Shown here one piece after another: positions 15,792 to 52,110 of a DNA stretch of 64,000 bases. Positions within the stretch are counted from its first letter, which is position 1. Each line of letters starts with the position of its first letter. The notes below the pieces were generated by a model. It saw only the letters and a program-made list of their open reading frames with translations. It did not search any database and was not told the DNA's origin. The translations under genes and the position numbers were made by a program. The stretch comes from a virus. The DNA lies in IMG/VR virus record IMGVR_UViG_3300022699_000293, positions 1 to 64,000 of that record. One strand, written 5' to 3'.

Positions 15792-15958
15792 GAAACACAT
15801 ACACTGCTTGATTTGGTACGTTAGTTGAAGGGGAGAACAACTAATGGACCAAAACTAATCTTTAATTTTTAAAGCTATAAAGTACGTAACGTACTTTTTA
15901 AAAAATGCTATCTGGGGGGAAATAAAATAACATGGTAATCCAGTGTATGTTTTTTTTT
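15792..15958. ncRNA. candidate structured non-coding element: closing inverted repeat enclosing three hairpins
   Basis: ACATACACTG (15797-15806) / CAGTGTATGT (15941-15950); hairpins 15812-15853, 15866-15904, 15905-15933; T-run after the closing stem. Confidence 0.5.
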
Positions 15959-18950: not shown

Positions 18951-18951
18951 G

Positions 18952-24460: not shown

Positions 24461-25489
24461 ATGGAAAATGAAGATACTTTTACAGATAGAGTTTTACAAA
24501 ATTACTACAAAGATTTAAGCAGGAATTCAATTTTATCTTCTGAGGAAGAACGGAATTTACTTCAACGCTACAACTTTTGTAGCAAATGTAAAACTCGGAT
24601 TCCAAATCGTGTACAGCGTAAATATTGTATCGAGTGTGGTACGCCCATACTTAATGTAGTAGAACACCACACAACCATCTGCAAGGTATGTCGTGCTAAA
24701 TTTGATACCTTCTATACTCCTTCTTATTGTATTCAATGTGGCCAACCTCGAGATCTAGCTGCTCGCGACGAATTAATTAAAGGTAATTTACGTTTTGTAG
24801 TCAAGATGGCTAAATCTATTACAAAAGATCCTTACCGTATTAAACAATTAACTTCTGCTGGAAATCTTGGTTTAATGACAGCTATAGATAAATTCGATGT
24901 TGAACAACCTACACGATTTCTAACATACGCGGCCCATTGGATACGTAAAGAAATGTTTGAAGAAATTCAAAATAGTGATTTAGTTCACATACCTTCGCAC
25001 AAACAAAAAACACAGCGTAAAATTGCCAAACATGGAATTTACGAGTGTGTACATTGTGGCCTTCAGATTGAAGAGAAACATCCTACTAAAAAATTACCTC
25101 CCTGTGTTGAGGAAAAACATGAATTTATCGAAACCAAAGAGACAGAAAATTTAAATACTGTAGTACCTTTAGAACCTAAGTTAACTTCTGTATTACCTGT
25201 CGAAGATCAAACTGAAGAAACTATAGTAGACGTGTCTGCAGCAAATTTGTTAAGAAAAGTATTAAGCAAAGTTAAAGCTAGAGCACGAGATAAATTTATA
25301 TTATTACAATATTATAACGTTCCAGAAGAGTCCCGACGCACTTCTTCTAAAAGTCTACATCAGCTTGCAATTTTAGCAGATATCACGCCTGAGCGTGTAC
25401 GCCAGATTAAACAACGTCTTTTAAAAGAAGTGCGTGGGGAATTATGTCGGATGGCTATCACAGATATGGATGATATTTACGGTATATAA
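24461..25489 (+). CDS. sigma70-family sigma factor with zinc-ribbon insertions
   Basis: Region 1.2 YYKDL...ILSSEEE, region 2 NLRFVVKMAK / GNLGLMTAIDKFD / RFLTYAAHWIR, region 4 ITPERVRQI; five CxxC pairs inserted. Confidence 0.88.
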   Translation: MENEDTFTDRVLQNYYKDLSRNSILSSEEERNLLQRYNFCSKCKTRIPNRVQRKYCIECGTPILNVVEHHTTICKVCRAKFDTFYTPSYCIQCGQPRDLAARDELIKGNLRFVVKMAKSITKDPYRIKQLTSAGNLGLMTAIDKFDVEQPTRFLTYAAHWIRKEMFEEIQNSDLVHIPSHKQKTQRKIAKHGIYECVHCGLQIEEKHPTKKLPPCVEEKHEFIETKETENLNTVVPLEPKLTSVLPVEDQTEETIVDVSAANLLRKVLSKVKARARDKFILLQYYNVPEESRRTSSKSLHQLAILADITPERVRQIKQRLLKEVRGELCRMAITDMDDIYGI

Positions 25490-29483: not shown

Positions 29484-29884
29484 AATTGTTCCTTCCCGTT
29501 TCGTGTAGGGGGTGGAGAAGCAGTAAATCGATTAGACGTTTGTGATGCTTTTTGTGACGGAATGGGGGAAGCATCTTGCATGAGTTCTTCATTTTGGCGT
29601 TGTAATTCTTCCATAGTTAGCGGAGAATCATCAGTACTTGGGAGAGATTCTGATTCGTCCTCAGCTTGCATAGTTTTCTTTGTTGCTTTTTCAGAATTTA
29701 AAATTTCTGTTTCCTTAGTTCCGACAAATTCATGTTTTCTTAAATATTGGGCTGCGTCCTCAATAATTGCTGAAATTTTATTATTGTCTATAACGCGTAT
29801 TCTCACTTTTTGTGCACCCTCAAAAATTCCTAACGTGTCTGCGATTAGTATGCGAATATCCTCTTCGGATAAGATGATATCCAT
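29480..29884 (-). CDS. hypothetical protein (134 aa)
   Basis: Coupled ORF, low-complexity C-terminus. Confidence 0.6.
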   Translation of the reverse strand: MDIILSEEDIRILIADTLGIFEGAQKVRIRVIDNNKISAIIEDAAQYLRKHEFVGTKETEILNSEKATKKTMQAEDESESLPSTDDSPLTMEELQRQNEELMQDASPIPSQKASQTSNRFTASPPPTRNGKEQL

Positions 29885-31950
29885 TACGCATCCTCCTTTG
29901 TATCTTCTTGCAGTTCAATGATTCCCGCACGTGTAGGTTGTTTTATTACATTTTTTTGTAAAATGCAATCATCACTCCAAGGTTCTATACCTTCTTTTAA
30001 ACATTTAGAATATCGTGAACAAATTAAACAATTGATATGTTGCGTTAGAGTGGATGCTATATCTTTTTTGGATCGCAAAGCACTTAATTGTTGTATTTCA
30101 ACAGTGTGCCTCCCGCATAAGATATACACTACGGTTTTTTCTTCCTGACCAATTCTATAATTACGATTTTGTGATTGTAACCAATTTTCTAATGACCAGT
30201 TACGTGAGTAGTAAATAGTATACTTAGCTGCTGTAAGAGTAATTGAAATACCTACAGATACTTGACCCAAAAATATGCGGCAACTTGGATCTGTTTGAAA
30301 CGTTGATTCCATTAGATACATTTGACTTGTATTTGTACCGTCAGCACGAACATACTTTAATTTTTTAGCTTGTAGTATTTTTTCTATATCGTCTAATTCA
30401 GCTATAAAATTAGCCCAAATAATAACTTTATTGTTAGGGGCGTTAAGGAGATTGTCTAAAAATTCATTCAGGAATTCTAATTTAGGGTTAGGGGAATAGC
30501 GAACAATTTCTCTAGATTGTTGGGTTAGTTGTGTTTTATTGTACACACATTTAGATGATCCTGGTTGGGTACCTCGAGCTATGCATTGACGTAGATACGG
30601 ACAATCATCACAAATGTCTGTAAGCTTATGAGTATCATAGTAAAAACCGCTACAAATCTGGAGAAGTTTAGACAAACAAATTGCATTATTTTGGATTTCT
30701 AAAGGATCGTGCAAATAACGAGTAATTGACATATCTGTTATAGCTTCGTTATAATCTTTACGCTGTTTTTGTGTCAAATCAAAATATAGAGGAACAAAAG
30801 TACGCTCAGGTAAGTCAACACAATCAGCCAATTTTTTTTGGTCAGAAACCCAAGACACTAATCGGTTTAATTCATCTAGCTTCTTATACCCGACAACTAT
30901 GGGTTTATTTTGATGTGCGTAAGCTATATGCTTACGACAAAATTTATCATATTGTGTAGGAAGTATATACGGAGCTAAAAACTTTAATTGAGGGTAAAGA
31001 TCACGAGGATCTCCTAAACTTAGAGTACCGCTAAGTAAGTATCGACGAGAAAATTTAGCGGCAAGCCGCATACAAACCTTAGTTCGTTGACTTTCAATTG
31101 TTTTTATACGGTGGGACTCATCGGCTACTATAATAGAAAATTCAGTTAACTGTGAAATCCATTGATATGAATCTCTTGTTAAATCTTTTACTTCTTCTTT
31201 AATGTCTTTAACTTCACGTCCTTTAATCCAATCATCCATTAATTGCGTTTGTTTCTTAGGATCATTAACCATACGCAGTGCACGAGTTAGGGAAATAGGT
31301 TCTTCACGTTGCTTCTTTTCTAGTACCAATTTTCGAGCTTGTCCAAAAACTGTAGGTATACCGTAACGACGTGCAGTATCATAAGATACTATTAGAAAAT
31401 CTTTTTGAGCACAATTATTGAGTATTTTCAATTTACGTTTGCGTGTTCCTGTCATGCCTACAGCTGAAAGAGTGCTATCAGTATGCTTTTCAACTTCTTT
31501 TAACCAGGTACCGATAGCTACAGGAGGACAAAGAACAAGAACTTTTTTACGGAGTAAATAAGCTAAATCGATTACAGGTTTAGTTTTTCCCGTACCCATT
31601 TCCCACTGCAAGATATACCTATAATTACACAGAAGTCTACCTAACCCTTCAGACTGATGCTGATAACTTTTGTAAGAACCTGGCAATGTTACGTTTCGAG
31701 CATAGTCAAACCATTCTTCTTCCGTGTGTTGGTTATCTAAATAATTTTGAGCTTCTGGGGAAAAGTCCAAATGTTTGTAGACTTCTTCCAAATCGTGTAG
31801 TACTCTATCTAAAAATGGAGGAAATGCTGGGTAGCGCCAAAATTCTTTAGATTTATCCAAGGATGCTCCAAAAATTTTACTACCCAATGTTTTAGGATTT
31901 TTTGTTATGAATACAGGAAGTTTGTTGATATATTCTAATTCAATTTTCAT
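29884..31950 (-). CDS. SNF2-family (SF2) helicase
   Basis: YQHQ, MGTGKT, ADESH, LSGT, KLLQICSG, KVIIWA.F, QSQNRNYRIGQ; start placed at ATG 31950. Confidence 0.9.
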   Translation of the reverse strand: MKIELEYINKLPVFITKNPKTLGSKIFGASLDKSKEFWRYPAFPPFLDRVLHDLEEVYKHLDFSPEAQNYLDNQHTEEEWFDYARNVTLPGSYKSYQHQSEGLGRLLCNYRYILQWEMGTGKTKPVIDLAYLLRKKVLVLCPPVAIGTWLKEVEKHTDSTLSAVGMTGTRKRKLKILNNCAQKDFLIVSYDTARRYGIPTVFGQARKLVLEKKQREEPISLTRALRMVNDPKKQTQLMDDWIKGREVKDIKEEVKDLTRDSYQWISQLTEFSIIVADESHRIKTIESQRTKVCMRLAAKFSRRYLLSGTLSLGDPRDLYPQLKFLAPYILPTQYDKFCRKHIAYAHQNKPIVVGYKKLDELNRLVSWVSDQKKLADCVDLPERTFVPLYFDLTQKQRKDYNEAITDMSITRYLHDPLEIQNNAICLSKLLQICSGFYYDTHKLTDICDDCPYLRQCIARGTQPGSSKCVYNKTQLTQQSREIVRYSPNPKLEFLNEFLDNLLNAPNNKVIIWANFIAELDDIEKILQAKKLKYVRADGTNTSQMYLMESTFQTDPSCRIFLGQVSVGISITLTAAKYTIYYSRNWSLENWLQSQNRNYRIGQEEKTVVYILCGRHTVEIQQLSALRSKKDIASTLTQHINCLICSRYSKCLKEGIEPWSDDCILQKNVIKQPTRAGIIELQEDTKEDA

Positions 31951-32003
31951 GAAATTTACCTTACACTTTGTTGAAGGTTGGATGGTTACAGGAGAGTAAG
32001 TAC

Positions 32004-33743
32004 ATGGCAAACGAATTTAATACTAGCGATCCCTACTTGTTTACAGGTCGTCGCAATGTAGCGCCACATAGTAATCCTTATCACAGCTATACACAAGTTT
32101 TTAGTCCAAGACGTTTAAAAGACTTGTTTAAATGGTGTGAGTTTTTATTTGCTAATTCTGCCCATATCTATGCTGCTTTGCGGAAATTTGGGGAATACCC
32201 TATTACTGAAATTTTATACGAAACAAATAATGAAACACTTAAAACCAAACATAAAAATATTTTAGAAAAAATTATACACATTCGTGAATTGCTTATTGAA
32301 ATGACCTTAGATAAATACGTGTATGGGAATGCTTTTCTTTCCATGTACCAACCATTTATCCGCTTTTTAAAATGTACTAAATGTCAAACATTGACGAACA
32401 TTCAAAATGTTAAATATGAGTATAATTACCAAGCAATGAAGTTCACGTATGAGTGTCCTGCGTGTCATAAAAAAGTCGTTGCTACAGAAAAACATATTAT
32501 AGATCGAAAAGTTTCGGTTAGTCGCAAAATTAATTTTATTCGATGGGATCCTAAAAAAATAGATATCGACCATAACCCCCTAACAGGAGCTTCAGTTTAT
32601 TATTACAATATTCCAGAATCTGTAAAAGAAAGCGTAAAAAAAGGACATAAGTTTTTAATAGACAGTATGCCTTTAGGCTTTTTGAAAGCAATAAAAGAAA
32701 AACAACAATTCAGATTTGCTCCTGGATATATTTTTCATATGAAGATAGGAGGTCCCGCAGGTATTAATCCGCAATGGGGACTGCCTCCGTTACTTTCGAC
32801 ATTACAATTGTTCCATTATACCGCTATTTTAAGAAAAGCTAACGAAGCTATTTCTCTGGATTATTTAACTCCTCTTCGTATTGTCCACCCAGCACCGCAA
32901 AGTGGTAACGCAGATCCTGTCACTACAATTAGTTTACAAGAGTGGCAACAAAACTTAAAAGGAAATATAAAGGATTGGAGACAAGATCCTTTACATATGA
33001 TGTTTGCACCTGTTCCTGTAGGAATGACGCAAGTAGGGGGACAAGGACGAGCATTATTAACTTTAGGAGAAGTGCAAGAAGCGGAAAAAAATATTGTAGC
33101 CGCTTTAGGAATTCCTCTAGAATTTCTTTACGGAGGCTTAACGCGAAGTGGTATGGAAGCTACTTTAAGATTAATAGAGAATCAATTAGAGACACACATT
33201 AGTGATTTGAATGACTGCATACAATGGATATCTGATAATTGTGCTAAGTTTTTGGGTTATGATAAAGTTTCTATGGAATTAGCCCCGTTCCGGATGATCG
33301 ACGACCAAACACAAAAGAATATTTCGTTACAATTATACCAAGCAGGACACCAACTAGGTCGGAAAATAATTTCGGAAAAAACCATAGCAGAACAGAACAA
33401 CTTGGATTTAGACAAAGAAGAAGATCGCATCAAACAAGAAGAGCTGGATGCTGTGCGGCGTGATGCAGAATTGCAAATCGAGATAAGTAAGCTACAAAAC
33501 AACATGGCAAATCGAATTAGGCAAGAAACCCAACAAAGCGAAATGGCTATGGGTGGTGGTGGTGCTCCTACAGGTTATAACCAACAACAAGTAATTGCAC
33601 AAGCTGATCAACTTGTAGCACAATGGGCACAAATGGAAGAAGGGAGACGTAAAAGTATGATGGATTCTTTAATGAAAGAAGACTTCGTGTTGTACTCTGT
33701 AGCTATGCAACGTTGGGAAGACTTTGAACAACAACAACAATAA
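32004..33743 (+). CDS. putative portal protein with Zn-ribbon insertion
   Basis: YVYGNAF, WDP..I, WGLPPL, IVAALGIPLEFL portal-like motifs; size and position; GGAGAG RBS before ATG 32004. Confidence 0.6.
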   Translation: MANEFNTSDPYLFTGRRNVAPHSNPYHSYTQVFSPRRLKDLFKWCEFLFANSAHIYAALRKFGEYPITEILYETNNETLKTKHKNILEKIIHIRELLIEMTLDKYVYGNAFLSMYQPFIRFLKCTKCQTLTNIQNVKYEYNYQAMKFTYECPACHKKVVATEKHIIDRKVSVSRKINFIRWDPKKIDIDHNPLTGASVYYYNIPESVKESVKKGHKFLIDSMPLGFLKAIKEKQQFRFAPGYIFHMKIGGPAGINPQWGLPPLLSTLQLFHYTAILRKANEAISLDYLTPLRIVHPAPQSGNADPVTTISLQEWQQNLKGNIKDWRQDPLHMMFAPVPVGMTQVGGQGRALLTLGEVQEAEKNIVAALGIPLEFLYGGLTRSGMEATLRLIENQLETHISDLNDCIQWISDNCAKFLGYDKVSMELAPFRMIDDQTQKNISLQLYQAGHQLGRKIISEKTIAEQNNLDLDKEEDRIKQEELDAVRRDAELQIEISKLQNNMANRIRQETQQSEMAMGGGGAPTGYNQQQVIAQADQLVAQWAQMEEGRRKSMMDSLMKEDFVLYSVAMQRWEDFEQQQQ

Positions 33744-33763: not shown

Positions 33764-34333
33764 ATGGTTAAGGACACACGACAAGATTCAACTTTTGCAA
33801 CTTTGGTTCAATCAGCAAGAGACAAACCTCCTCGCATGTCTCAAGAAACAGAGATTCCTTCTTTATTTTCGCCACCATCCGACGATTCTTCAAAAGATTC
33901 GTTTGTAGCTAAAGAATTAACAAACAATAAACCTGGACGACAAATACGTCTTGTAAGTTTTACGCGTACTTTTGTATTGTGGCGTCCTTGGGAAAAATGT
34001 TCTCGATGTTTGGAAATGTTAAAACAGGGAGAAATAGAATTACCTTCAATAGGGGATATGACTTGCCCCCATGTACAGCTTGCGGAGTATAAAGAAATTA
34101 AAGATGCTGTTCTCAGAGGTGACGGTATTAAAGAATTTGAAGAATACTTTCAATTACATGACGGTACTCGATGTGTTCAATTTTCTTGGTTGGAAGCTGA
34201 TCCAGAATTTTTAGAAAAAATGAAAAAAGAAGCTCAAAAAAACAAGGATAGCGTGTACCCACCAAACCCTGAAAAAGTTTTTAACCAAAAAGAGGAGGAG
34301 ACTCCGAATAATGATTCTGAAGTCTCCTCCTGA
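33764..34333 (+). CDS. hypothetical protein (189 aa)
   Basis: ORF after portal; CSRC...CPH. Confidence 0.65.
   Translation: MVKDTRQDSTFATLVQSARDKPPRMSQETEIPSLFSPPSDDSSKDSFVAKELTNNKPGRQIRLVSFTRTFVLWRPWEKCSRCLEMLKQGEIELPSIGDMTCPHVQLAEYKEIKDAVLRGDGIKEFEEYFQLHDGTRCVQFSWLEADPEFLEKMKKEAQKNKDSVYPPNPEKVFNQKEEETPNNDSEVSS
34287..34331 (-). terminator. intrinsic terminator-like hairpin oriented for a minus-strand transcript
   Basis: AGGAGGAGACT (34293-34303) / AGTCTCCTCCT (34321-34331); the minus strand continues CTTTTT. Confidence 0.55.
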
Positions 34334-34555: not shown

Positions 34556-37500
34556 ATGCCTAAGCTAACACCTTTGATGATAGGTCCAGATCAACGTAGA
34601 ACTCTTATTCACGAAAAAGTGAAAGAGGGTTTGAATGAATCATTTCCTATACAGTCTCGGAATAAGACATTGGAAGTGAAAGATCTTCGCATAATAAATA
34701 AAGACTATACGCCGACAGAACAGAAACGCGCAATTCTTTCTGGAGATTCTCTCTTTGAATCTGTTAAAGGAACTGTAAGTATAAAAGATAAGAAGGGTAA
34801 AATTTTAGATGAAGCCAAAAACTTTACTTTAGTCCGAATTCCTTATTTTACTCCTCGACATACTTTTATCATTGGGGGTAACGAACATTCTGTTTCTAAT
34901 ATGGTACGTCGTAAACCGGGAGTTTATTCTCGTAAAAGAGCTAATGGTATTTTAGAGGCAGGGTTTAACACCATCGGAGGATCTAATTTTCGAGTAAGCA
35001 TGGATCCTTCTAAAGGACAGCCACAATTAGAATACGGGTCGACTAAAATTCCATTATATCCTATTTTACGTAAATCTGGAATTTCTCACGACAATATAGC
35101 TAAAGCGTGGGGGTCTAAATTAGCAGATATTAATGAAAAAGAACTATCTTCTAAAACAGACAGATATATTGATAAGTTATATAACAAAGAAATTCCTCCT
35201 TATTTTAGAGACGAAACAAAAACTTCTCAGGAAAAAATGGAGGATATTTTAACACGTTATAAAGATGCTAAAATGGATCCTGAAGTTAATCAAAAAACTT
35301 TAGGACGTCCTCACACGCATGTTACTCCTGACAGTTTGCTGGACGCGTCTACTCGTGTATTGAAAATATTTAACAAAGAAGAAGACGTGGACGATCAAGA
35401 TAATTTGGGCTTTAAAACATTAATGTCTGTTGATGATTTTTTTAAAGAGCGTATAAAATTACACGCTAGAAACGTTGCTAATAAAACAGCGATAAAAATG
35501 GAAAGAACCCCGCAACTTAAGAAAGCATTACCTCCAGGCCCATTTACAAAAGATCTGTTACAATTTATTTCTACTTCCTCTTTGTCTTCAATTCCAGATC
35601 AAACTAACCCTGTGGATTTGATTGACTCAGCTATGAGAGTAACGTCTTTAGGTGAAGGTGGAATCTCAACTGAACGTGCTATTCCTATCGAAGCTCGACA
35701 AACCCATGTAACTCAAATGGGTGCTTTAGATCCTATTAGAACACCAGAATCTAGTCGTGCCGGTATTGATGTAAGAGCTGCAGTAACAGCTCAACGAGAT
35801 GAAAATGGAGATATCTACGTTCCTGTTTACGACGTAAAAAGTCAACGAGAAAAATACATTAAAGCAGGTCACCTCCAGGACTCTGTTGTAGCTTTTGCGA
35901 ACCAACCCTTGAAAGGGTCTGTTGAGGCTGTCGCACGAGGTGTTGTTCGTCGTGTACCTGCACGAGAAGTAGACTACCAAATACCGCACCAATCTCGTTT
36001 ATACAGTGCTACAACAAACTTAATTCCTTTTTTGGAATCGGCACAAGGCAATCGAGCTGTAATGGGTTCGAAAATGCAAGTGCAAGCGTTATCCTTGGTT
36101 AATCGTGACGCTCCTTATGTTCAAGTTGCGACGCCTTCACAAAAATCTTTCGAACGAATGATAGGTAAGATTGTTAATCCCCATTCTCCAGTATCAGGCA
36201 CTGTTAAAAAAATAGATAATGATTACATTTACGTGTTGCCCGACCAAGAAAAACAAGCCGCAATTAACAAAGCTATTAAAATTCCTTATGACAATAATTT
36301 TCCGTTAGCTACCAAAACATATTTAAATCATGATTTGTTTGTCAAACCTGGAGATAAAGTTAAGAAGGGTCAAACTTTAGGTACTTCTAATTTTACTAAA
36401 AATGGGGTTTTGGCACTAGGTAAGAACATGAGTGTTGCTTACATGCCGTATTACGGAAAAAATTCTAATGATGCGGTAGTGATTAGCGACAAAGCAGCAA
36501 AAAACTTAACGTCTGAACGTATGTATAAAATCGTAGTACCTCAAGAACCCAACTTAACTTTAAACCAAAACAAACATAAAACGTATTACGGGCATAGATA
36601 TAAAAAGGATCAATATAGAAGGTTAGACAAAGATGGAGTAATCGAAGCAGGTACTAAATTAACTCCACACGACCCATTGGTGGTAGGTGTTCGAAAAACT
36701 GAATTATCTCCGGATGACTTAATACTAGGACGATTGCATCGTTCTCTTGCAAACCCTTACAAAGAATTTAAACACGAGTGGGATCACGATTATGAAGGAG
36801 AAGTTGTAGATGTAGTCAAAACACCTAAACGTGTAACCATGACAGTTAAAACACGAGAACCTGCACGAATAGGAGACAAGTTAAGTGGGCGTTTTGGGAA
36901 TAAGGGGGTTGTTTCTGAAATCATTCCTCAAGATGAAATGGTTAAGGATGAGGCTGGAAAGCCTATTGATATTATTATGACTTCCGCTGGTGTTGTGTCA
37001 CGAATTAATCCTAGCCAAATTATAGAAACAGCGGTAGGGAAAGTTGCTGAAAAAACAGGAAAACCAATTATTGTAGATAACTTTACTAGAAAAGATAATG
37101 TTAAATGGGCAAGAAAATTATTAAAAGAACATGATTTAAAAGATAAGGAAACTGTTTACGATCCAAAATCAGGAAAAAAAATTCCTAACATTATGGTAGG
37201 TCGTCAATATCTTTATAAGTTATCTAAATCTACTGATACAAATTATAGTGCTCGAAGTATGGGTACTTATGACATGAATATGCAACCAACTCGGGGAGGA
37301 ATTCAAGGAGCTAAGGCTTTAGGCAAAATGGAATTCGATGCTTTGCTAGGTCATAATGCACGCAATATTTTAAGAGAAGCTGCTACAGTTAAAAGTCAAA
37401 AGAATGATGAATTTTGGCGTGCTATTCAACTAGGTCAAATGCCTCCTACACCAAAATCTATTTTTGCTTACGATAAATTTCTCAACATGTTGAAAGGTGC

Positions 37501-38917
37501 AGGTGTTCGCGTAGACCGCGAAGGTAGTAAAATGTCTTTAGCCCCCCTTACGGACAAAGATGTTACTGAAATGTCTTCCGGTGAAATCAAAGATGCTAAG
37601 ATAGTACGCGCCAAGGATTTACGTCCGGAAACCGGAGGTTTGTTTGATCCGGGAATAACTGGAGGTTTACGAGGAACTCGCTGGTCTCATATTTCTTTGG
37701 CTGAACCTATAATTAACCCTGTATTTAAAGAACCTGTTAGGCGGTTACTAGATATGTCTAACGCACAATTGACAGATACGCTAAAAACTAAAGGAGGAAA
37801 TCATATTAAAAAAGAATTGGGTAAGATTGATTTGGATGCTAAAGAAAAAGAGCTTAAACGACAATTAAAGAAAAAGAATCCAAGTCAAGTAGATAATTCT
37901 TTAAAACAAATAAAATACATACGCGCATTAAAAAAATTAAATTTAAAACCTGATGAAGCGTATACAATGACGAAAGTACCCGTTGTTCCGCCGGTGATTC
38001 GTCCTGTAGTACCCGGTAAAGGTGGGACACAACTTGTTTACGGTGATGCCAATCCTTTATACCAAGATTTGATTTATATTAATAATCAAATGAAAGAAAT
38101 AAAGGATCCTAAAAATCCTACACCTCCGGGTGAAGAAGAAAAACTTAGACCTTCATTGCAACAAGCTGTAGGCGCAGTTTATGGGACTGATGAGCCCGCC
38201 ACAGCAAAATCTCGAGGACGAAAGCATAAAGGTTTTTTAACTTATATCTCGGGAGAGGGAGGACCAAAGCATGGATTTTTTCAATCAAAGTTGATGTCTC
38301 GAGCTCAAGATATGGCTGGGAGAGGAACAATTGTTCCTGACAGTACTTTGGGAGTAGATGAGATTGGCGTACCTGAAGAAATGCTATGGACGATGTACCG
38401 AGATTTTATCATCAGGGGCTTAGTTCAAAAAGGTTTTCCGGCTATCCAAGCTCGTCAAATGGTGGAAGACAAACATCCAGCTGCAAAAGATACGCTAAAC
38501 CGAATTATTAAGGAACGTCCTGTATTAATGAACCGCGCACCTACGTTACACAGGTACAACATTGTAGGAGCTAAACCTGTACCTGTACCAGGACGTACAT
38601 TACGAGTTAATCCTTTTATAGAAGCGCATATGAATGCAGATTATGACGGAGATGCAATGACCCTACATGTTCCCATCTCGCCTGCTGCTGTTAAAGAAGC
38701 GGAGGATATTACGCTTTCTAAACTTTTATACGGGGATAAAACCAAAAATGACTTATTAGTTTTCCCACAGCACGAAGCGATAATGGGGATACACCAAGCT
38801 AGTGGCGCGGACGATAAGAATACAATACCTAAAAAATTTAAAAATCAGGGTGAAGCAATAGCAGCTTACAAACGTGGAGAAATTGGACTAGGAACTCGGG
38901 TAACTATTGGAAATTAA
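34556..38917 (+). CDS. multisubunit RNA polymerase: beta fused to the N-terminal half of beta' (contains the catalytic motif)
   Basis: beta: IPYFT..F.IGG.E, DPIRTPE, NRAVMGSKMQ.QA, GDKLSGRFGNKGVV, GKMEFDAL; beta': GGLFD, HI.LAEP, PVVPP..RP, NRAPTLHR, NADYDGD; AAGGAG RBS before ATG 34556. Confidence 0.93.
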   Translation: MPKLTPLMIGPDQRRTLIHEKVKEGLNESFPIQSRNKTLEVKDLRIINKDYTPTEQKRAILSGDSLFESVKGTVSIKDKKGKILDEAKNFTLVRIPYFTPRHTFIIGGNEHSVSNMVRRKPGVYSRKRANGILEAGFNTIGGSNFRVSMDPSKGQPQLEYGSTKIPLYPILRKSGISHDNIAKAWGSKLADINEKELSSKTDRYIDKLYNKEIPPYFRDETKTSQEKMEDILTRYKDAKMDPEVNQKTLGRPHTHVTPDSLLDASTRVLKIFNKEEDVDDQDNLGFKTLMSVDDFFKERIKLHARNVANKTAIKMERTPQLKKALPPGPFTKDLLQFISTSSLSSIPDQTNPVDLIDSAMRVTSLGEGGISTERAIPIEARQTHVTQMGALDPIRTPESSRAGIDVRAAVTAQRDENGDIYVPVYDVKSQREKYIKAGHLQDSVVAFANQPLKGSVEAVARGVVRRVPAREVDYQIPHQSRLYSATTNLIPFLESAQGNRAVMGSKMQVQALSLVNRDAPYVQVATPSQKSFERMIGKIVNPHSPVSGTVKKIDNDYIYVLPDQEKQAAINKAIKIPYDNNFPLATKTYLNHDLFVKPGDKVKKGQTLGTSNFTKNGVLALGKNMSVAYMPYYGKNSNDAVVISDKAAKNLTSERMYKIVVPQEPNLTLNQNKHKTYYGHRYKKDQYRRLDKDGVIEAGTKLTPHDPLVVGVRKTELSPDDLILGRLHRSLANPYKEFKHEWDHDYEGEVVDVVKTPKRVTMTVKTREPARIGDKLSGRFGNKGVVSEIIPQDEMVKDEAGKPIDIIMTSAGVVSRINPSQIIETAVGKVAEKTGKPIIVDNFTRKDNVKWARKLLKEHDLKDKETVYDPKSGKKIPNIMVGRQYLYKLSKSTDTNYSARSMGTYDMNMQPTRGGIQGAKALGKMEFDALLGHNARNILREAATVKSQKNDEFWRAIQLGQMPPTPKSIFAYDKFLNMLKGAGVRVDREGSKMSLAPLTDKDVTEMSSGEIKDAKIVRAKDLRPETGGLFDPGITGGLRGTRWSHISLAEPIINPVFKEPVRRLLDMSNAQLTDTLKTKGGNHIKKELGKIDLDAKEKELKRQLKKKNPSQVDNSLKQIKYIRALKKLNLKPDEAYTMTKVPVVPPVIRPVVPGKGGTQLVYGDANPLYQDLIYINNQMKEIKDPKNPTPPGEEEKLRPSLQQAVGAVYGTDEPATAKSRGRKHKGFLTYISGEGGPKHGFFQSKLMSRAQDMAGRGTIVPDSTLGVDEIGVPEEMLWTMYRDFIIRGLVQKGFPAIQARQMVEDKHPAAKDTLNRIIKERPVLMNRAPTLHRYNIVGAKPVPVPGRTLRVNPFIEAHMNADYDGDAMTLHVPISPAAVKEAEDITLSKLLYGDKTKNDLLVFPQHEAIMGIHQASGADDKNTIPKKFKNQGEAIAAYKRGEIGLGTRVTIGN

Positions 38918-40507
38918 ATGACTCATTCTTCACCAGCGCAGCGTACTGCAGCCTGGGCTAATCGGAAATACCCAGATGTAGAAAACTTGAATACTGTTTT
39001 AGTAGATAGTCCAAGTACTAGCCTACGAATGACAAAAAAAGATGTATTAGATTATTATACAACACCAGAGGTGCAACGTAACTTGTTGCCCCAATTACGT
39101 CAAAAAGATTTAATTGCCTTAGTTGCTAGAGATCCTAACAATCCAATAATCAGAAGGTATCGTAGAAGAAAGGAACCTGTCCGCATATCTGATAAAAAAG
39201 ACTTAGATTGGTATGCCAAGCGCAGATATGTTGAATTTCACCCAACGTTAAAATCCAAATCTAAAGAGTTGTGGGTAGACTTGGATGCGGGTAAGAATGT
39301 AGGTATCGACGAAATAAAACCTGCAGTTAAAGATGTACAAAAAGCTGTTTCTAAAATCCCCAACATTAAAAAAACGGACATAACATTTTCTGGTGGTCGA
39401 GGTTTTCATGTTCGAGGAGAGTTAAATAAAGAACAAAGAACAAGTTCCTTAGAAAAAGTTATCAAACGCGTTATGGCTCGTTTGGCACGACGAAATAAAC
39501 GTTACACTACACGCCCTCCCAAAACCAATGAAATTCGTCTTGACACTTCTACGTTTCACGAACGAGGTTCAATACGCGCTCCTTTTTCACTTAATCAAAA
39601 AACAGGATTAGTTTCAGTTCCTGTAAAAAATAATCATTTAAAATCTTTTGATCCTATTGCTCATGCTAACCCTTGGGCAGTGATTGCTGAATTACGACGT
39701 AAAAAGAAAACTTCGCGTGAATTTGCTCCAGGCATTCCCGAAAATAGAGCTATTAAATCTTTACCTAGCTTTAAACAACCTAAATCGTGGATTATGTCTG
39801 TTCAAGAGCATGACGCAAAAAAAGCAGGAAAACATTACGATTTACGTTTAGTGGATCCTTGGAGTGACTACGCTCACTCTTGGGCAATCCCTAAAAGTAA
39901 ACTACCTCGAGCAGGAGAAAAACCTGTTCTAGCAATCCAAACTCCTACACATACATCGAACTATGCATTAACCTTTGGAGCTAAAAAACCTGAGCATATT
40001 GCCAAGGGCTACGGAGCAGGCACAGTACAAATAAAACATAAGGAACCTGTACAATTAACTTCTTCTCCAGATTTTATTAAATTCAAAAGACAAAAAGGTC
40101 GTGGCCAAGAAGAAAATTTTGTGCTATTCCGAACTAAAGGAGATTCTTGGTTATTACGTAATGTGACAAAATCGGGAACAGTAAAGGAAGCTGTAATGAG
40201 TTCTTTATATTGGAATGGATTTGAAGAAACGCTACAAAAATTAGGTATGTCTAATGAAGTGCGTGCGGCTATAAAACAACGTGGTCAATCGGAAAATATG
40301 CAACAATCTTTAGAAACAGAAGATCAAGGATTACCTTCTGCGGCTTTAGCTAAACAACTACAGAAATTACCTGTACCTGAAATTGTACACAAAAATAAAG
40401 GACAAGATAGCGTTGAAAATAGACTAAATAGATCTGTATCTTGGGGACCTAAACAAGAAATTTCACATGAAGTTGCTACGGGACCTTCCCCGATAATGGG
40501 AATTTAA
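38918..40507 (+). CDS. LigD-like primase-polymerase (AEP) plus 3'-phosphoesterase, no ligase domain
   Basis: EFHP, VDLD, FSGGRGFHV, IRLD, RAPFSL; QEHDA...HYDLRL, SWAIPK, LAIQT.TH, GYGAG. Confidence 0.85.
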   Translation: MTHSSPAQRTAAWANRKYPDVENLNTVLVDSPSTSLRMTKKDVLDYYTTPEVQRNLLPQLRQKDLIALVARDPNNPIIRRYRRRKEPVRISDKKDLDWYAKRRYVEFHPTLKSKSKELWVDLDAGKNVGIDEIKPAVKDVQKAVSKIPNIKKTDITFSGGRGFHVRGELNKEQRTSSLEKVIKRVMARLARRNKRYTTRPPKTNEIRLDTSTFHERGSIRAPFSLNQKTGLVSVPVKNNHLKSFDPIAHANPWAVIAELRRKKKTSREFAPGIPENRAIKSLPSFKQPKSWIMSVQEHDAKKAGKHYDLRLVDPWSDYAHSWAIPKSKLPRAGEKPVLAIQTPTHTSNYALTFGAKKPEHIAKGYGAGTVQIKHKEPVQLTSSPDFIKFKRQKGRGQEENFVLFRTKGDSWLLRNVTKSGTVKEAVMSSLYWNGFEETLQKLGMSNEVRAAIKQRGQSENMQQSLETEDQGLPSAALAKQLQKLPVPEIVHKNKGQDSVENRLNRSVSWGPKQEISHEVATGPSPIMGI

Positions 40508-40508
40508 T

Positions 40509-42305
40509 ATGACTACACAAACTTTTGGGCGATACTTACTTAACCAACATATTCCTAAAGATTATCAATTGTCGGGAGAATCTGGGAAAAAAGAATTACG
40601 TACCAAAATGAACGCATTGGCAAAAAAAGATCCGGTGGCTTATGTGAAAACAATTACAGATCTTAAGCGTGAAGGTGATTTCTTAGCTACAATGTCGGGA
40701 CTTTCTGTGGGCTTGGATGATATTTCACCGGCACCGACACGCGATGAAGTATTGAAACCTTTGGTATCTGCTTTTAATCGCGCACAAACAGATAAACAAA
40801 GACGGCGTATTGCCGAACAAGCACAGGAAAAATTACTCAGTACTGTATCCAAACATCCAGGATCCATGACACAACAAGTAAAAAGTGGGGCTCGAGGAAA
40901 ACCTGTACAGTATATGAAAATTGTCGCATCTCCTGCTGCAGCTAGAGATTCTTACGGATATACAGAACCTTGGTTGATTACTCGGTCATATGCCGAAGGT
41001 TTACGCCCTTCTGATTATTGGGTTGCGGGTAACGAAGCTATCTTAGACACTATCAAAAGCACTGTTTCAGTGTCTGAACCAGGGGAATTGACTAAAGTCC
41101 TTATGAGTAATATGGCAGATACGCTTGTAATTGAAATTGATTGCGGCACACATAATGGTATTTCCTTAAATGTTAGTGACTCTAATATTTTAGACAGGTA
41201 CTTGGCTCGAGATACCGGACGCTTTAAGCGTAATACTTTAATTACATCACAAGTACAAACGGCTTTAAAAAAAGCAGGAAAACAAAAAATCCTGGTACGT
41301 TCTCCTATGACTTGTGAGTCTGATGATGGAGTTTGTCAGAAATGCCAAGGGTTGGATGAGAAAGGTAATCCTCAAGAATTGGGTGTGAACGTTGGTGTGC
41401 GTGCAGCTTCTGCGTTAGGGGAACCTTTAAGTCAATTTGCCTTGGATGCTAAGCACGGAGTACGTACGGCTAAAGGAGATCGTGCTAGATTGCAAGGAGT
41501 TTCTGGCTTTCGTCAAATAATAGAATCGCCACAACAATTTTTAAACAAAGCAACTCTTGCGGAACACGGCGGGAATGTAGATAAGATTGAAACTGCTCCT
41601 CAGGGAGGTCATTTCGTATACGTGAATGCTAAAAAACATTTTGTACCTCCTAATTTACAAGTAACAGCAAAAAAGGGGGATTCCATAGAACCAGGAGATT
41701 CTCTTAGTGAAGGCATTCCCAAACCTGATGAAATAGTTCGTTACAAAGGACTCGGTGCAGGACGGCAGTATCTTGTAAATACTTTGCGTGATTTGTATGC
41801 TAATCAAGGACGAGACTTAGATCAGAGACATTTTGAATTATTAGCAAAGAACGAATTGAACCATGTGCGCGTTTTAGAAGATCCAGGTAACAATTTTTTA
41901 AAAGGAGACGTGGTATCTTATAATGCTCTTCGATCTACATTAGCTAAACAATCAAAAGAAATACCTATTAACGAGTCGTTAGGGCAAGTATTAGGAAAAC
42001 CTTACTTTCATTTTTCTGTAGGTCAGCGTATTACTCCAGCAGTTCTTCACTATTTAAAGAAAGAAGGTTTGAAATCTGTACTCATTGCTTCAAAAGCACC
42101 TAATGTAGAATTTATTATGAAACCTGCAACACGCGCACCCTTGTTAAACCCTGATTGGATGGCTCGATTAGGTCACAGGTACTTAAAAACAACTCTAAAG
42201 GAAGCTGCTCATTTTGGGGATATTTCTAATTTACAAGGTACCCACCCTGTTCCTGCTTACGCTGCTGGCGTAAACTTTGGTCAGGGAAAACAAGGACGCT
42301 ATTAG
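40509..42305 (+). CDS. rpoC: RNA polymerase beta' C-terminal half
   Basis: TFGR, SGARG, SYAEGL.P, DT.....EPGELTK, DCGT, VRSP.TC...VCQKC.G, VGV.AA..LGEP.SQ, HFELL. Confidence 0.9.
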   Translation: MTTQTFGRYLLNQHIPKDYQLSGESGKKELRTKMNALAKKDPVAYVKTITDLKREGDFLATMSGLSVGLDDISPAPTRDEVLKPLVSAFNRAQTDKQRRRIAEQAQEKLLSTVSKHPGSMTQQVKSGARGKPVQYMKIVASPAAARDSYGYTEPWLITRSYAEGLRPSDYWVAGNEAILDTIKSTVSVSEPGELTKVLMSNMADTLVIEIDCGTHNGISLNVSDSNILDRYLARDTGRFKRNTLITSQVQTALKKAGKQKILVRSPMTCESDDGVCQKCQGLDEKGNPQELGVNVGVRAASALGEPLSQFALDAKHGVRTAKGDRARLQGVSGFRQIIESPQQFLNKATLAEHGGNVDKIETAPQGGHFVYVNAKKHFVPPNLQVTAKKGDSIEPGDSLSEGIPKPDEIVRYKGLGAGRQYLVNTLRDLYANQGRDLDQRHFELLAKNELNHVRVLEDPGNNFLKGDVVSYNALRSTLAKQSKEIPINESLGQVLGKPYFHFSVGQRITPAVLHYLKKEGLKSVLIASKAPNVEFIMKPATRAPLLNPDWMARLGHRYLKTTLKEAAHFGDISNLQGTHPVPAYAAGVNFGQGKQGRY

Positions 42306-42312
42306 GAATAAA

Positions 42313-42816
42313 ATGGATTACGATTTTTATAAGTTAGGATGGGATGCAGCACTTGTAGACTTAGGCTTATGTAAAGAAGCTGCGTGGCCTAAAAGTTTAG
42401 CACGTGTGGGGAAATTTTTAAAAAGTAAGGTTCCTTCTAAAGCAGGTGTAAAAAAATTTTTTATAGGCAGTCCTAGACGTTTTATGCATGAATTTCGCAG
42501 TAAAAAATTATTGCAACCTGGAAGTACTTTGCGTGAGGGTTACAGAGCACGCAGTCCTCTGGAAAAAGCGCTGCTTTACGGTTTTCCATTGTACGAGGGA
42601 GGCCGTATTTTAACAGGAGACCCTGGACAAAGAGCTGAAAATATAGGAGGATTGCTGGGAGGTATGACTCTTGGTTTGGGTGCGTGGGGGCCTTCAGGTA
42701 TGTTAGGCTCCATAGCTGCAGGTAGCTTGGGAGACTATTTAGGAAGAGGACTTGCCCGAACAGCTAAACATTCTTTGGGAGTAACCCCCGACGTAACGAA
42801 TATATACAAAAAATAA
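42313..42816 (+). CDS. basic glycine-zipper protein with N-terminal tag; putative head cargo/ejection protein
   Basis: FYKLGWDAALVDLGLCKEAA followed by GxxxG-rich hydrophobic helices. Confidence 0.55.
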   Translation: MDYDFYKLGWDAALVDLGLCKEAAWPKSLARVGKFLKSKVPSKAGVKKFFIGSPRRFMHEFRSKKLLQPGSTLREGYRARSPLEKALLYGFPLYEGGRILTGDPGQRAENIGGLLGGMTLGLGAWGPSGMLGSIAAGSLGDYLGRGLARTAKHSLGVTPDVTNIYKK

Positions 42817-50028: not shown

Positions 50029-52110
50029 ATGCTTTCAAAAATATTACATTTAGATTCGCATTTCCCTACAGGCGAGTTAACAGTACAGCCTGTATTTTTG
50101 TGGGCTAATGGAAAAGCATGTCTTGAAAATATAAGCAAGTATGCAAGTGTGGGTCACGATTACTTCAAAACAATTGAACCTATTCCCGGACACTCCGTTG
50201 TTTATGTTCTTGCTGTTAGTGGTTGGGAAACTTACGGAGAAAATAAAAATGGGGACGGTTTTCCTGAATTCCCATATAAAGAAGATTCTTCTCCACCATG
50301 GATTGCTCCTGATGAAGTTCTTCCGTTACATTATAAATCTTTTGAAAAACACGGAAATAACTTTCGACATCATCAAAATAAAGATCCTAAAAAAGCTGTA
50401 GGGAAAGTTATAAAATCTTTTTGGAATCCTACAATGCACCGAGTTGAACTTCTAATTGATTTAGAAGATGAAAAAGCTCCAGATTTAGCGGAAAGAATTG
50501 CTTCCGGTGAATTCCCTCCTGTTAGTATGGGAACTCGAGTTAGGTACGATGTTTGTAACATTTGCGGTAATCGCGCACCTACTCGTGCTCAATATTGTGA
50601 CCATCTTAAATTTCAAATGAAGCAGACACTACCAGACGGTAGAACTATTTGTGCTTTAAACCCTAATCCTAAATTTTTTGATATTAGTTGGGTTTTTAAA
50701 CCAGCAGACCCGACAGCGTATATGCTAAAAAAAGTAGCTGATAACGAACCTTATGAGTTGTCAGGTGCAGCTGCAGGAGAGTACTTAGACAAGATGGCGG
50801 AACGAAAATTAGCCGCTAAAAAATTAGCTGTAATTGACAAACTTATTCAAGGTTATCCTCTAGACGCTAAATGCGAAGGATTTAATCCCTCCGATATACA
50901 TAACATTCAAGCTATAAGAGATCTTGTTCTATCCGTAGTAGACGACATTCCTGAATTCTCAGACGATACTTTGAAAGAATTGTCGATCCACCCTCTTAAC
51001 AAAATTTTTTCTACTTTGTTTTCAGGAGGAATTTCTCTTTCTACTCCGGAGTTAGTAAAAATAATCGTCTATAAAAATTATCCTAATACGGAAATAGGGG
51101 ATGATATTTTAGACAAGTGCGTTATTATGCAACAACCTTTAAGGGAATTTATTGAAGATTGTCCCCAAATTATGGATCAGTTTGAAAAAGATGGGTACTT
51201 TGACTTAGGTATCGATAAAGTAGATACCAAAATAGCTTCAATTGTTGATCCTTATTTTGAAAAACGTTCTGGTATTCCTCAATATTTAAAACGACAATTT
51301 GTACCTTCAAAATATCGAGATGTGCCTGAGCCTAAAACAACACCTCTTACCGTTAGTGATCCAGTTACAGGAACTCGATACCAAACTACACGAGGTGCTG
51401 CTCTAACGGCACATGACGAAATAGCTAAAAAGAATTTAATGAAAGTTTTGGGGGGTGCTGCTTTGTTGGGCGGTGCTTATAAGTTACTTGGAACAGGTTT
51501 AGAGCATATAGGGAAACGAAAATTAAAACCACTATTAGGGTTATCTTTAGCAGGTTTAGGTGTTAGTCAGTGGCCTGATATGGGTCCGCATTACAGGACA
51601 GACCAAGGCGTTCCTGTGCCGACATTGACTGAAATGGTACCTAAGCAGGCAGCTATAACATCTTCTTTAGCATTGCCTGCTTTAGGTACTTTAGCAGCTA
51701 TGACTGCTTTGGGCTTAGACTATAAATCTCGATTACGGCGAGGAGAACCTATAGGGCATCCTGCATTACCTTTATCTCGACGACTATTGGATAGGGTTGA
51801 ACGTTTTACTTATGAGCACCCTGTAGTTACTGCTATTGGTGGAACAGCTGCCTTGAAAGGTCTTGGAAAAATTCCTCTTGTGCAGAAAGGTATGGGTTAT
51901 GCCGGACGTGCAGGAGAATATGCAAAAAGAAAAGCTCAAGATGCTGCTTCAAATGTGCGCGATGCTTTTCGTACTATGGCTCGGGAACGTGTAAAAGTAT
52001 CTGAACTTCTCGAACCAGATTTACCAACACCTACAGGTACAGTAGAATTGCCCCCTATAGATTTGGATAAAATAGCTACAAAAATTGGTTATCTAATTTG
52101 GGAAGGCTAA
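50029..52110 (+). CDS. putative prohead maturation protease (HK97/assemblin-like) with C-terminal extension
   Basis: N.NGDGF, FRHH.N.D....VG (His), VSMG (Ser), CNIC..CDH Zn insert, FFDISWV..PAD; upstream of the scaffold/capsid genes. Confidence 0.65.
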   Translation: MLSKILHLDSHFPTGELTVQPVFLWANGKACLENISKYASVGHDYFKTIEPIPGHSVVYVLAVSGWETYGENKNGDGFPEFPYKEDSSPPWIAPDEVLPLHYKSFEKHGNNFRHHQNKDPKKAVGKVIKSFWNPTMHRVELLIDLEDEKAPDLAERIASGEFPPVSMGTRVRYDVCNICGNRAPTRAQYCDHLKFQMKQTLPDGRTICALNPNPKFFDISWVFKPADPTAYMLKKVADNEPYELSGAAAGEYLDKMAERKLAAKKLAVIDKLIQGYPLDAKCEGFNPSDIHNIQAIRDLVLSVVDDIPEFSDDTLKELSIHPLNKIFSTLFSGGISLSTPELVKIIVYKNYPNTEIGDDILDKCVIMQQPLREFIEDCPQIMDQFEKDGYFDLGIDKVDTKIASIVDPYFEKRSGIPQYLKRQFVPSKYRDVPEPKTTPLTVSDPVTGTRYQTTRGAALTAHDEIAKKNLMKVLGGAALLGGAYKLLGTGLEHIGKRKLKPLLGLSLAGLGVSQWPDMGPHYRTDQGVPVPTLTEMVPKQAAITSSLALPALGTLAAMTALGLDYKSRLRRGEPIGHPALPLSRRLLDRVERFTYEHPVVTAIGGTAALKGLGKIPLVQKGMGYAGRAGEYAKRKAQDAASNVRDAFRTMARERVKVSELLEPDLPTPTGTVELPPIDLDKIATKIGYLIWEG

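Follow-up and report, generated by a model that had tools for sequence, protein, structure and literature searches.

Covalent joining of the two large subunits of bacterial RNA polymerase (RNAP), beta and beta', is known from the rpoB-rpoC fusions of Helicobacter and Wolbachia and from an engineered fusion in E. coli, all of them cellular enzymes in which an entire beta', the zinc-binding domain, alpha and omega are kept. The locus considered here is a phage counterpart in which such a fusion is combined with a cut. It lies in a window of 64,000 nt of viral DNA (positions 1 to 64,000 of the IMG/VR virus record IMGVR_UViG_3300022699_000293, which is 87 kb long and estimated to be about half complete), where one gene encodes a beta that runs directly into the N-terminal half of beta' and a second gene encodes the remainder of beta'. 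A preliminary description, made from the letters of the window, had presented this arrangement as a new subunit topology. That view holds to the extent that no published description of a single-chain or fused-then-split form was found in the searchable literature; on the other hand, the arrangement is one branch of a larger fused phage family, and the same layout is present in deposited isolate genomes. The two genes are as follows.

34556..38917, plus strand: fused RNAP gene, 1453 amino acids (aa), 162 kDa, with both double-psi barrels in one chain (chain 1)
40509..42305, plus strand: gene for the C-terminal half of beta', 598 aa, 66 kDa, Pfam Rpb1_5 (chain 2)

We consider it likely that the pair specifies a phage-encoded, bacterial-type RNAP core of two polypeptides that was derived by fission, a judgement that takes in the proposals on partners and delivery given below.

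The fusions of Helicobacter and Wolbachia have the same order as the phage chain, with the C-terminal end of beta joined to the N-terminal end of beta', and chain 1 shares this feature in full. They also carry the whole of beta' in the one chain, a feature that is lacking in the window, where chain 1 stops at the equivalent of about beta' residue 552, but that is present in the single-chain phage relatives described below. A second kind of likeness is offered by the gamma and beta' of cyanobacteria and plastids, where beta' is also broken after its double-psi barrel into two halves that assemble together. In cyanobacteria, however, there is no fusion to beta, and gamma, with its 624 aa, extends beyond the phage stop by about 65 residues, so that the gamma/beta' boundary is not shared. 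The earlier statement that cyanobacteria split beta' near this point was thus correct as to the neighborhood, but the two positions are not the same. Cyanobacterial beta' also has a large insertion in the trigger loop, whereas chain 2 has none.

The enzymes of phiKZ and AR9 are multisubunit phage polymerases without alpha or omega in which beta' is split after the barrel, and one set of them is packaged in the virion. They differ in that their beta comes in two or three pieces, their sequences are far more diverged, they rely on a phage-specific fifth subunit and not on a sigma, and they occur as two sets. The window enzyme falls outside the phiKZ-like group, with a beta that is both intact and fused, a sigma gene in the same record, only one set, and subunits about 30% identical to those of bacteria. 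The preliminary description held that phiKZ-type enzymes are split differently, which is true of beta but not of beta', reportedly split after the same barrel. The 'beta/beta'' of Ralstonia phage RP13 was considered as a further case of the fusion and rejected, since it consists of separate phiKZ-style pieces. Set against the bacterial core that works with sigma, the window enzyme lacks the zinc-binding domain and comes without phage genes for alpha and omega.

Metagenomic work has also described mReC, a group of RNAP-encoding Caudovirales with compact, bacterial-like and deep-branching beta and beta' (Weinheimer and Aylward 2020, PMC7481178). Some members of the present family come from the same samples, and two stand-alone beta' proteins (1004-1014 aa) match the mReC size class, a comparison that concerns size only. 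All listed mReC genes are nonetheless separate (beta about 1000-1400 aa, beta' about 900-1200 aa) and none is fused, whereas the window has a fusion and a 598-aa remainder. The filters applied in that search (two hits, each of at least 800 aa) would probably have missed fused forms, and the present family extends the mReC lineage to such forms. As a separate observation, several large mReC contigs carry two beta/beta' pairs (about 1360 + 1005 and about 1010 + 900 aa), much like the phiKZ sets (Weinheimer and Aylward, supplementary data 2).

Finally, four isolates have the same architecture, namely Salmonella phage Arash (Gp206/Gp216) and Vibrio phages D69, D148 and D181. In Arash, the beta-beta'N chain of 1525 aa and the beta'C chain of 606 aa are 35% and 31% identical to those of the window over their full length, group with them in the split clade of the tree, and have the portal gene upstream. 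In Arash, 4.7 kb separate the two genes; this interval contains genes on the opposite strand but, unlike that of the window, no LigD-like gene. Both the paper and the database record name Gp206 and Gp216 simply beta and beta', and the fusion goes unremarked (Yousefi et al. 2023, PMC10585845). It had been asked at the outset whether an identical architecture was already characterized; the layout does exist in isolates, with proteomics for Arash, but it is annotated there only as beta/beta'.

Anatomy of the two chains

The first open reading frame (ORF1) is open from 34532 and probably starts with the ATG at 34556, which is preceded by GAAGGAG; its stop codon is the TAA at 38915-38917. The complete beta occupies approximately residues 1-985, and the N-terminal half of beta' approximately residues 990-1453. 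The Pfam domains follow one another in the order Rpb2_3, Rpb2_6 (E=1e-49), Rpb1_1 and Rpb1_2, and a search of the PDB matched residues 19-986 to bacterial beta and residues 1079-1451 to bacterial beta', with about 30% identity to solved bacterial subunits across many phyla. Domain order, structural matches and motif positions all bear out the earlier claim that one chain of 1453 aa runs from beta into beta' and through the motif NADYDGD. Anatomical numbering was taken from the Salmonella rpoBC and Enterococcus loci present in the phage collection, together with alignments of the family, and the landmarks of chain 1 are these.

35576..35662, plus strand: segment of beta equivalent to the rifampicin pocket, reading ...SSLSSIPDQTNPVDLIDSAMRVTSLGEGG in the alignment
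36872..36907, plus strand: beta active-site motif GDKLSGRFGNKG (residues 773-784), with the two lysines of the catalytic center (GDK...GNKG)
37478..37555, plus strand: beta/beta' junction, where the C-terminal helix of beta is followed, without an intervening linker, by beta' from about its residue 17
37634..37693, plus strand: GGLFDPGITGGLRGTRWSHI (residues 1027-1046), without a single Cys, at the site of the absent N-terminal zinc-binding domain of beta'
38633..38653, plus strand: catalytic Mg-binding motif NADYDGD (residues 1360-1366), with Y in place of the usual F

Both halves of the active center are clearly in place. The motif GDKLSGRFGNKG, with the lysines of the beta double-psi barrel, is invariant in an alignment of 20 family members, and NADYDGD keeps all three Asp residues of the Mg-binding loop of beta'. 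At the junction, the C-terminal end of beta reads FLNMLKGAGVRV and is followed by LAPLTDKDV..., which corresponds to about residue 17 of beta'. Shortly beyond it, GGLFDPGITGGLRGTRWSHI stands in place of the Cys-rich enterobacterial segment GLFCARIFGP...ERMGHI and is free of Cys across the family, Arash included, as expected from the earlier report that the N-terminal zinc-binding domain of beta' is missing; the domain is absent from split and fully fused forms alike. The zipper, the lid, the rudder, the clamp helices, the RAPTLH switch and the flap-tip helix are all retained in the alignment. In the rifampicin-pocket segment, S, S and T stand opposite Q513, H526 and S531 of E. coli rpoB, which suggests that the enzyme is probably not rifampicin-sensitive.

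Chain 2 corresponds to the C-terminal half of bacterial beta', and its TFGR start is equivalent to E. coli beta' 573. Its landmarks are the following.

41025..41114, plus strand: bridge-helix region, AGNEAILDTIKS...GELTKVL as against GARKGLADTALK...GYLTRRL, strongly diverged
41136..41351, plus strand: second zinc site, Cys212, Cys269, Cys276 and Cys279
41418..41468, plus strand: trigger loop GEPLSQFALDAKHGVRT, with the His kept and M-R-T-F changed to L-D-A-K

As had been proposed, the rest of beta' is therefore a separate gene of 598 aa that carries the bridge helix, the second zinc site and the trigger loop, on the strength of the Rpb1_5 match and the alignment. The four cysteines align to beta' 814, 888, 895 and 898; SGARG is retained, and the trigger-loop insertion SI3 is absent. 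Bridge helix and trigger loop are both present and alignable, although with non-canonical residues. Most of the basic residues of the bridge helix are gone, and the changes are kept within the split clade. The trigger loop reads QFALDAKH as against QLTMRTFH, which agrees with the LDAKH first noticed there; His936 is retained, M932, R933 and F935 are replaced, and the replacements are conserved within the clade. As a further observation, the C-terminus of chain 2 (...FGQGKQGRY, 42276-42302) has its final ...GRY kept from the window to Arash and D181, and the single-chain forms end in a similar EFG......Y tail that has no counterpart in bacterial beta'.

Recurrence in phages and origin of the split

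The window comes from one metagenomic contig, in which the split or fusion could in principle be an error of assembly, a frameshift, a product of gene calling or the remains of a decaying pseudogene. Work with relatives leaves this practically no probability. More than 120 clusters (at 90% identity, from a word-indexed search) have the same four Pfam domains in about 1450 aa, or more where inteins are present, and in more than 120 clusters the beta'C gene has a fixed length of 597-602 aa. In IMG/VR, a relative is encoded on 314 contigs, and those of the retained loci that contain the gene in full align from end to end, down to 39% identity; contigs of the family reach about 190 kb. Stop and start positions are identical in 55 non-identical loci and in the genomes of the four isolates that share the two-gene layout, with beta'C constant at about 598 aa, and every locus with enough flank has the order SNF2 helicase (minus strand), portal, fused gene, a gap of 0.5-5.7 kb, and beta'C. 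Residues are strongly conserved, and peptides span 100% and 89% of the two Arash proteins. The assembly error that the preliminary description named as its own possible undoing did not materialize, and an assembly error or a pseudogene is excluded.

Inteins provide another kind of evidence. Relatives carry them in frame at GDK/GNKG, directly past NADYDGD and where the zinc domain has been lost, with GDKLSGRFGNKG as the commonest insertion point. Since these inteins sit at catalytic motifs, the whole fused ORF must be translated and needed, and the topology is, judged from these sequences, genuine and under selection. The abundance of inteins in the family also raises the idea that the two chains are rejoined after translation, by a split intein or by trans-splicing, into a single mature chain. 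This is very improbable, as the alignment to the fused forms extends to the last residues of ORF1 and begins at about residue 3-5 of ORF3 (chain 2), which leaves no room for intein halves, and the ends (TRVTIGN* and MTTQTFGR) show no pattern of Cys, Ser or Thr nucleophiles.

Several observations on the inserts deserve mention in their own right. The in-frame inteins or LAGLIDADG inserts are 320-550 aa long and lie at window-equivalent residues of about 400, 777, 1041-1044, 1238 and 1366; the sites include the RTPES motif, the inside of GDK/GNKG, the site of the lost zinc domain and the position right behind NADYDGD, and some proteins carry three or four inserts. In a subclade of the split family (P0091, P0107 and about 30 more clusters), one or two inorganic-pyrophosphatase domains (InPase PF18823, E=8e-28 to 3e-51; PF00719) are inserted in frame in a surface loop of beta, at window-equivalent residues of about 560-580 (about nt 36230-36300), so that the polymerase would come with a pyrophosphatase of its own. 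An insert of about 0.95 kb with a homing-endonuclease gene, probably an intron, breaks the fused gene in D181 (L010, 10546-11494) and D148, while in the sister phage D69 the gene is unbroken.

The two-chain form also has uncut relatives. When residues 254-1453 of the fused chain were searched against 1.8 billion representatives, about 70 of the 150 matches listed carried beta'C in the same chain (by BLAST), with the sequence resuming 3-10 residues past the stop point of chain 1, and below about 40% identity many matches were 2000-2090 aa in length. In IMG/VR, 57 of 69 scorable loci had one ORF of about 2020-2200 aa, or longer with inserts. These single-chain beta-beta' proteins of uncultivated phages (about 2050 aa, 35-40% identity) belong to the same family, with the same beta/beta' junction, the same C-terminal tail and no zinc-binding domain, but they are uncut after the beta' barrel. 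They have the canonical NADFDGD, an M..FH trigger loop and a YGARKG bridge helix; only the split clade has Y for F in the Mg motif and K/R-H in the trigger loop.

A tree of beta', in which split halves were concatenated and a small outgroup of 14 bacterial beta' was used, separated the phage family from those bacteria as a distinct clade (support 100). This phylogeny against cellular enzymes had been suggested as a check, and within it all 55 split rows, Arash and the window included, formed one clade (99 in FastTree; SH-aLRT 99.1 in IQ-TREE, LG+G4, 65 rows). When the tree is rooted on bacteria, the earliest branches are fully fused lineages, among which the split clade is nested. Three stand-alone beta' proteins (P0461, P0465 and P0471; 1004-1060 aa) fall within the same phage clade. 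Other 'unfused' beta' candidates were set aside as mostly fragments of fused genes, one of them matching a stretch of a fused ORF exactly and others beginning inside beta or an intein. Because the split clade is monophyletic and nested among fused forms, the direction appears to be from fused to split, and the pattern is explained most economically by a single, ancient and derived fission of a phage enzyme that had consisted of one chain, with a re-tuning of the catalytic loops that would have accompanied or followed it. As one branch of a larger fused family, the enzyme is less singular than it first seemed; it is widespread.

How might the products of this fission work? Chain 1 supplies a complete beta and the first 470 or so residues of beta', and with them the whole Mg/lysine active center, the flap-tip helix, the lid, the rudder and the clamp helices. 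Chain 2 supplies what remains of beta', that is, the rim of the secondary channel, the bridge helix, the second zinc site, the trigger loop and the C-terminal region. Since the cut falls in the same inter-domain region as in cyanobacteria, even though gamma is about 65 residues longer, the two chains may assemble in the manner of gamma and beta'.

Partners, delivery and the intracellular alternative

For a polymerase of this kind, the evident candidates for partners are alpha, omega and sigma. At E<=1, the Pfam models for alpha and omega (PF01000, PF01193 and PF01192) hit nothing in the 87-kb record, two relatives or the complete genomes of Arash and D181, whereas 14 of 14 control genomes were positive; what had been said of the window, that it has no alpha or omega, thus extends to these genomes as well. 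Likewise, the small conserved neighbors at 33764-34333 and 42277-42816 showed no likeness to alpha or omega in the Protein Atlas (scores <0.9, TM <0.5). Each complete genome has one catalytic gene and hence a single polymerase set. A sigma70-family protein is encoded in all five of the five records, and that of the window is as follows.

24461..25489, plus strand: sigma70-family factor, 342 aa, with region 2, a double zinc ribbon and a region-4.2-like C-terminus

This factor is likely to be the specificity subunit. The flap-tip and clamp helices, which are the sigma-binding sites, are retained in the alignment of chain 1, and promoters would be recognized by one or more phage sigma70-type factors bound there. 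A complex predicted for beta'N (985-1453, with alignment) and the window sigma scored zero, which weighs neither way, and pattern scans for relatives of the window sigma and of the stand-alone beta' P0461 gave no matches. As an aside, the double zinc ribbon of the sigma (Pfam DZR_2 and DZR) precedes region 2, and a functional link between a zinc-ribbon sigma and a polymerase without its N-terminal zinc domain is conceivable. The assembly order of the textbook enzyme runs from alpha2 to alpha2-beta to alpha2-beta-beta'. In the phage enzyme no phage alpha or omega would be required, and the covalent beta-beta' link may stand in for the joining of the large subunits by the alpha dimer; such alpha-independence is suggested by the absence of the genes.

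The position of the polymerase among head genes raises a further possibility. The preliminary description had placed the RNAP in the head module, and the following flanking genes agree with this.

31968..33743, plus strand: portal-protein homologue, 30% identical to the portal annotated in Arash
50029-52110: head-protease match, downstream of the RNAP genes

Nearly all split loci, and most of the fully fused ones, have the portal upstream of their RNAP gene. In Arash particles, Gp206 was the most-detected protein (3516 spectra, 100% coverage) and Gp216 the fifth (1210 spectra, 89% coverage), and the sigma Gp10 was also detected (PMC10585845). Because of this abundance, and of a position downstream of the portal and, in the window, ahead of the head protease, the enzyme may be loaded into the capsid and injected with the DNA, which would make phage transcription independent of the host polymerase. 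We rate packaging and delivery with the DNA as about an even call, perhaps slightly better.

A number of points weigh against the reading of a self-sufficient, virion-delivered core that arose by fission. The deep nodes that nest the split clade are only moderately supported (79-93), with a small bacterial outgroup. For an active enzyme, the bridge helix and trigger loop have diverged to an unusual degree, even if the clade itself conserves them. The absence of alpha and omega genes is compatible with the use of host alpha2 and omega, the region of beta at about residues 811-900 shows no large deletion in alignment with Gram-positive beta, and the phage sigma might serve either the phage enzyme or that of the host. 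The 'virion' list of Arash holds 116 of 272 proteins and includes ribonucleotide reductases and kinases (PMC10585845). Carry-over from the lysate into that preparation is plausible, and the large size of Gp206 raises its spectral counts.

In another account, the same two-chain core is a conventional intracellular enzyme that is synthesized after infection, assembles on host alpha2 (and omega) and transcribes middle or late genes, the signal in Arash particles being contamination. The evident metabolic enzymes in the 'structural' list of Arash speak for it, as do the beta segments beside the active center, which align to Gram-positive beta without large gaps. Many phages, moreover, add only a sigma to the host core. 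On the other side, Gp206 and Gp216 are both within the top five proteins detected in the particles, the gene pair lies downstream of the portal in the split clade (as in most fused loci) and ahead of the head protease in the window, and two complete genomes contain no alpha or omega gene at all despite encoding both large subunits. We regard the intracellular account as a serious but rather improbable one and retain the preference for a fission-derived, phage-encoded two-chain core.

A bolder form of the preferred reading is also possible, although we think it less likely than not. The family would then represent the simplest known sigma-dependent, bacterial-type RNAP, with a core of one chain (ancestral) or two that works without alpha, omega or the zinc domain and is carried in the capsid, the fission clade having re-tuned its catalytic loop. 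If this is true, the alpha scaffold is dispensable in a bacterial-type enzyme whose large subunits are tethered. An abundant family with its own sigma, tethered large subunits and no alpha or omega gene makes the scaffold role of alpha directly testable. Matched natural forms are on offer for this, in one chain or as beta-beta'N and beta'C, while the stand-alone beta' proteins hint at a third, unfused form; culturable models exist in Arash, on Salmonella, and in the Vibrio phages. Next to the N4 and phiKZ types, the family may also represent a third class of polymerase delivered by the virion.

Neighboring genes

Two further genes belong to the surroundings of the polymerase.

29884..32010, minus strand: SNF2-family helicase, syntenic with the RNAP locus throughout the split clade
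38918..40507, plus strand: LigD-type Prim-Pol and 3'-phosphoesterase gene, 529 aa, without a ligase domain and not part of the RNAP

The SNF2-family helicase may be a transcription-associated ATPase. The LigD-like gene is packed stop-to-start between both RNAP genes, which are thus not adjacent; neither this gene nor the sigma70 gene at 24461-25489 had been mentioned in the first account of the locus, of which both polymerase ORFs are confirmed. Only in a subclade of at least 58% identity does a LigD-like gene occupy the gap, and other subclades have unrelated small genes there. Among the gap genes scanned in those other subclades (one with EF-hands, one ferritin-like and eight of unknown kind), there was no homing endonuclease that could have made the cut. 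PHROGs held no family for the portal, the neighbors or the LigD-like gene. With LigD-like, EF-hand, ferritin-like and unknown genes occurring by subclade, the gap behaves like a variable position for cargo. Elsewhere in the window, a family-A DNA polymerase gene (15957-18980, minus strand) has a weak match to the uracil-DNA-glycosylase superfamily at the N-terminus of its product (E=0.003), and its neighbors encode two PD-(D/E)XK nucleases, a ParB-like protein and a large primase-like protein.

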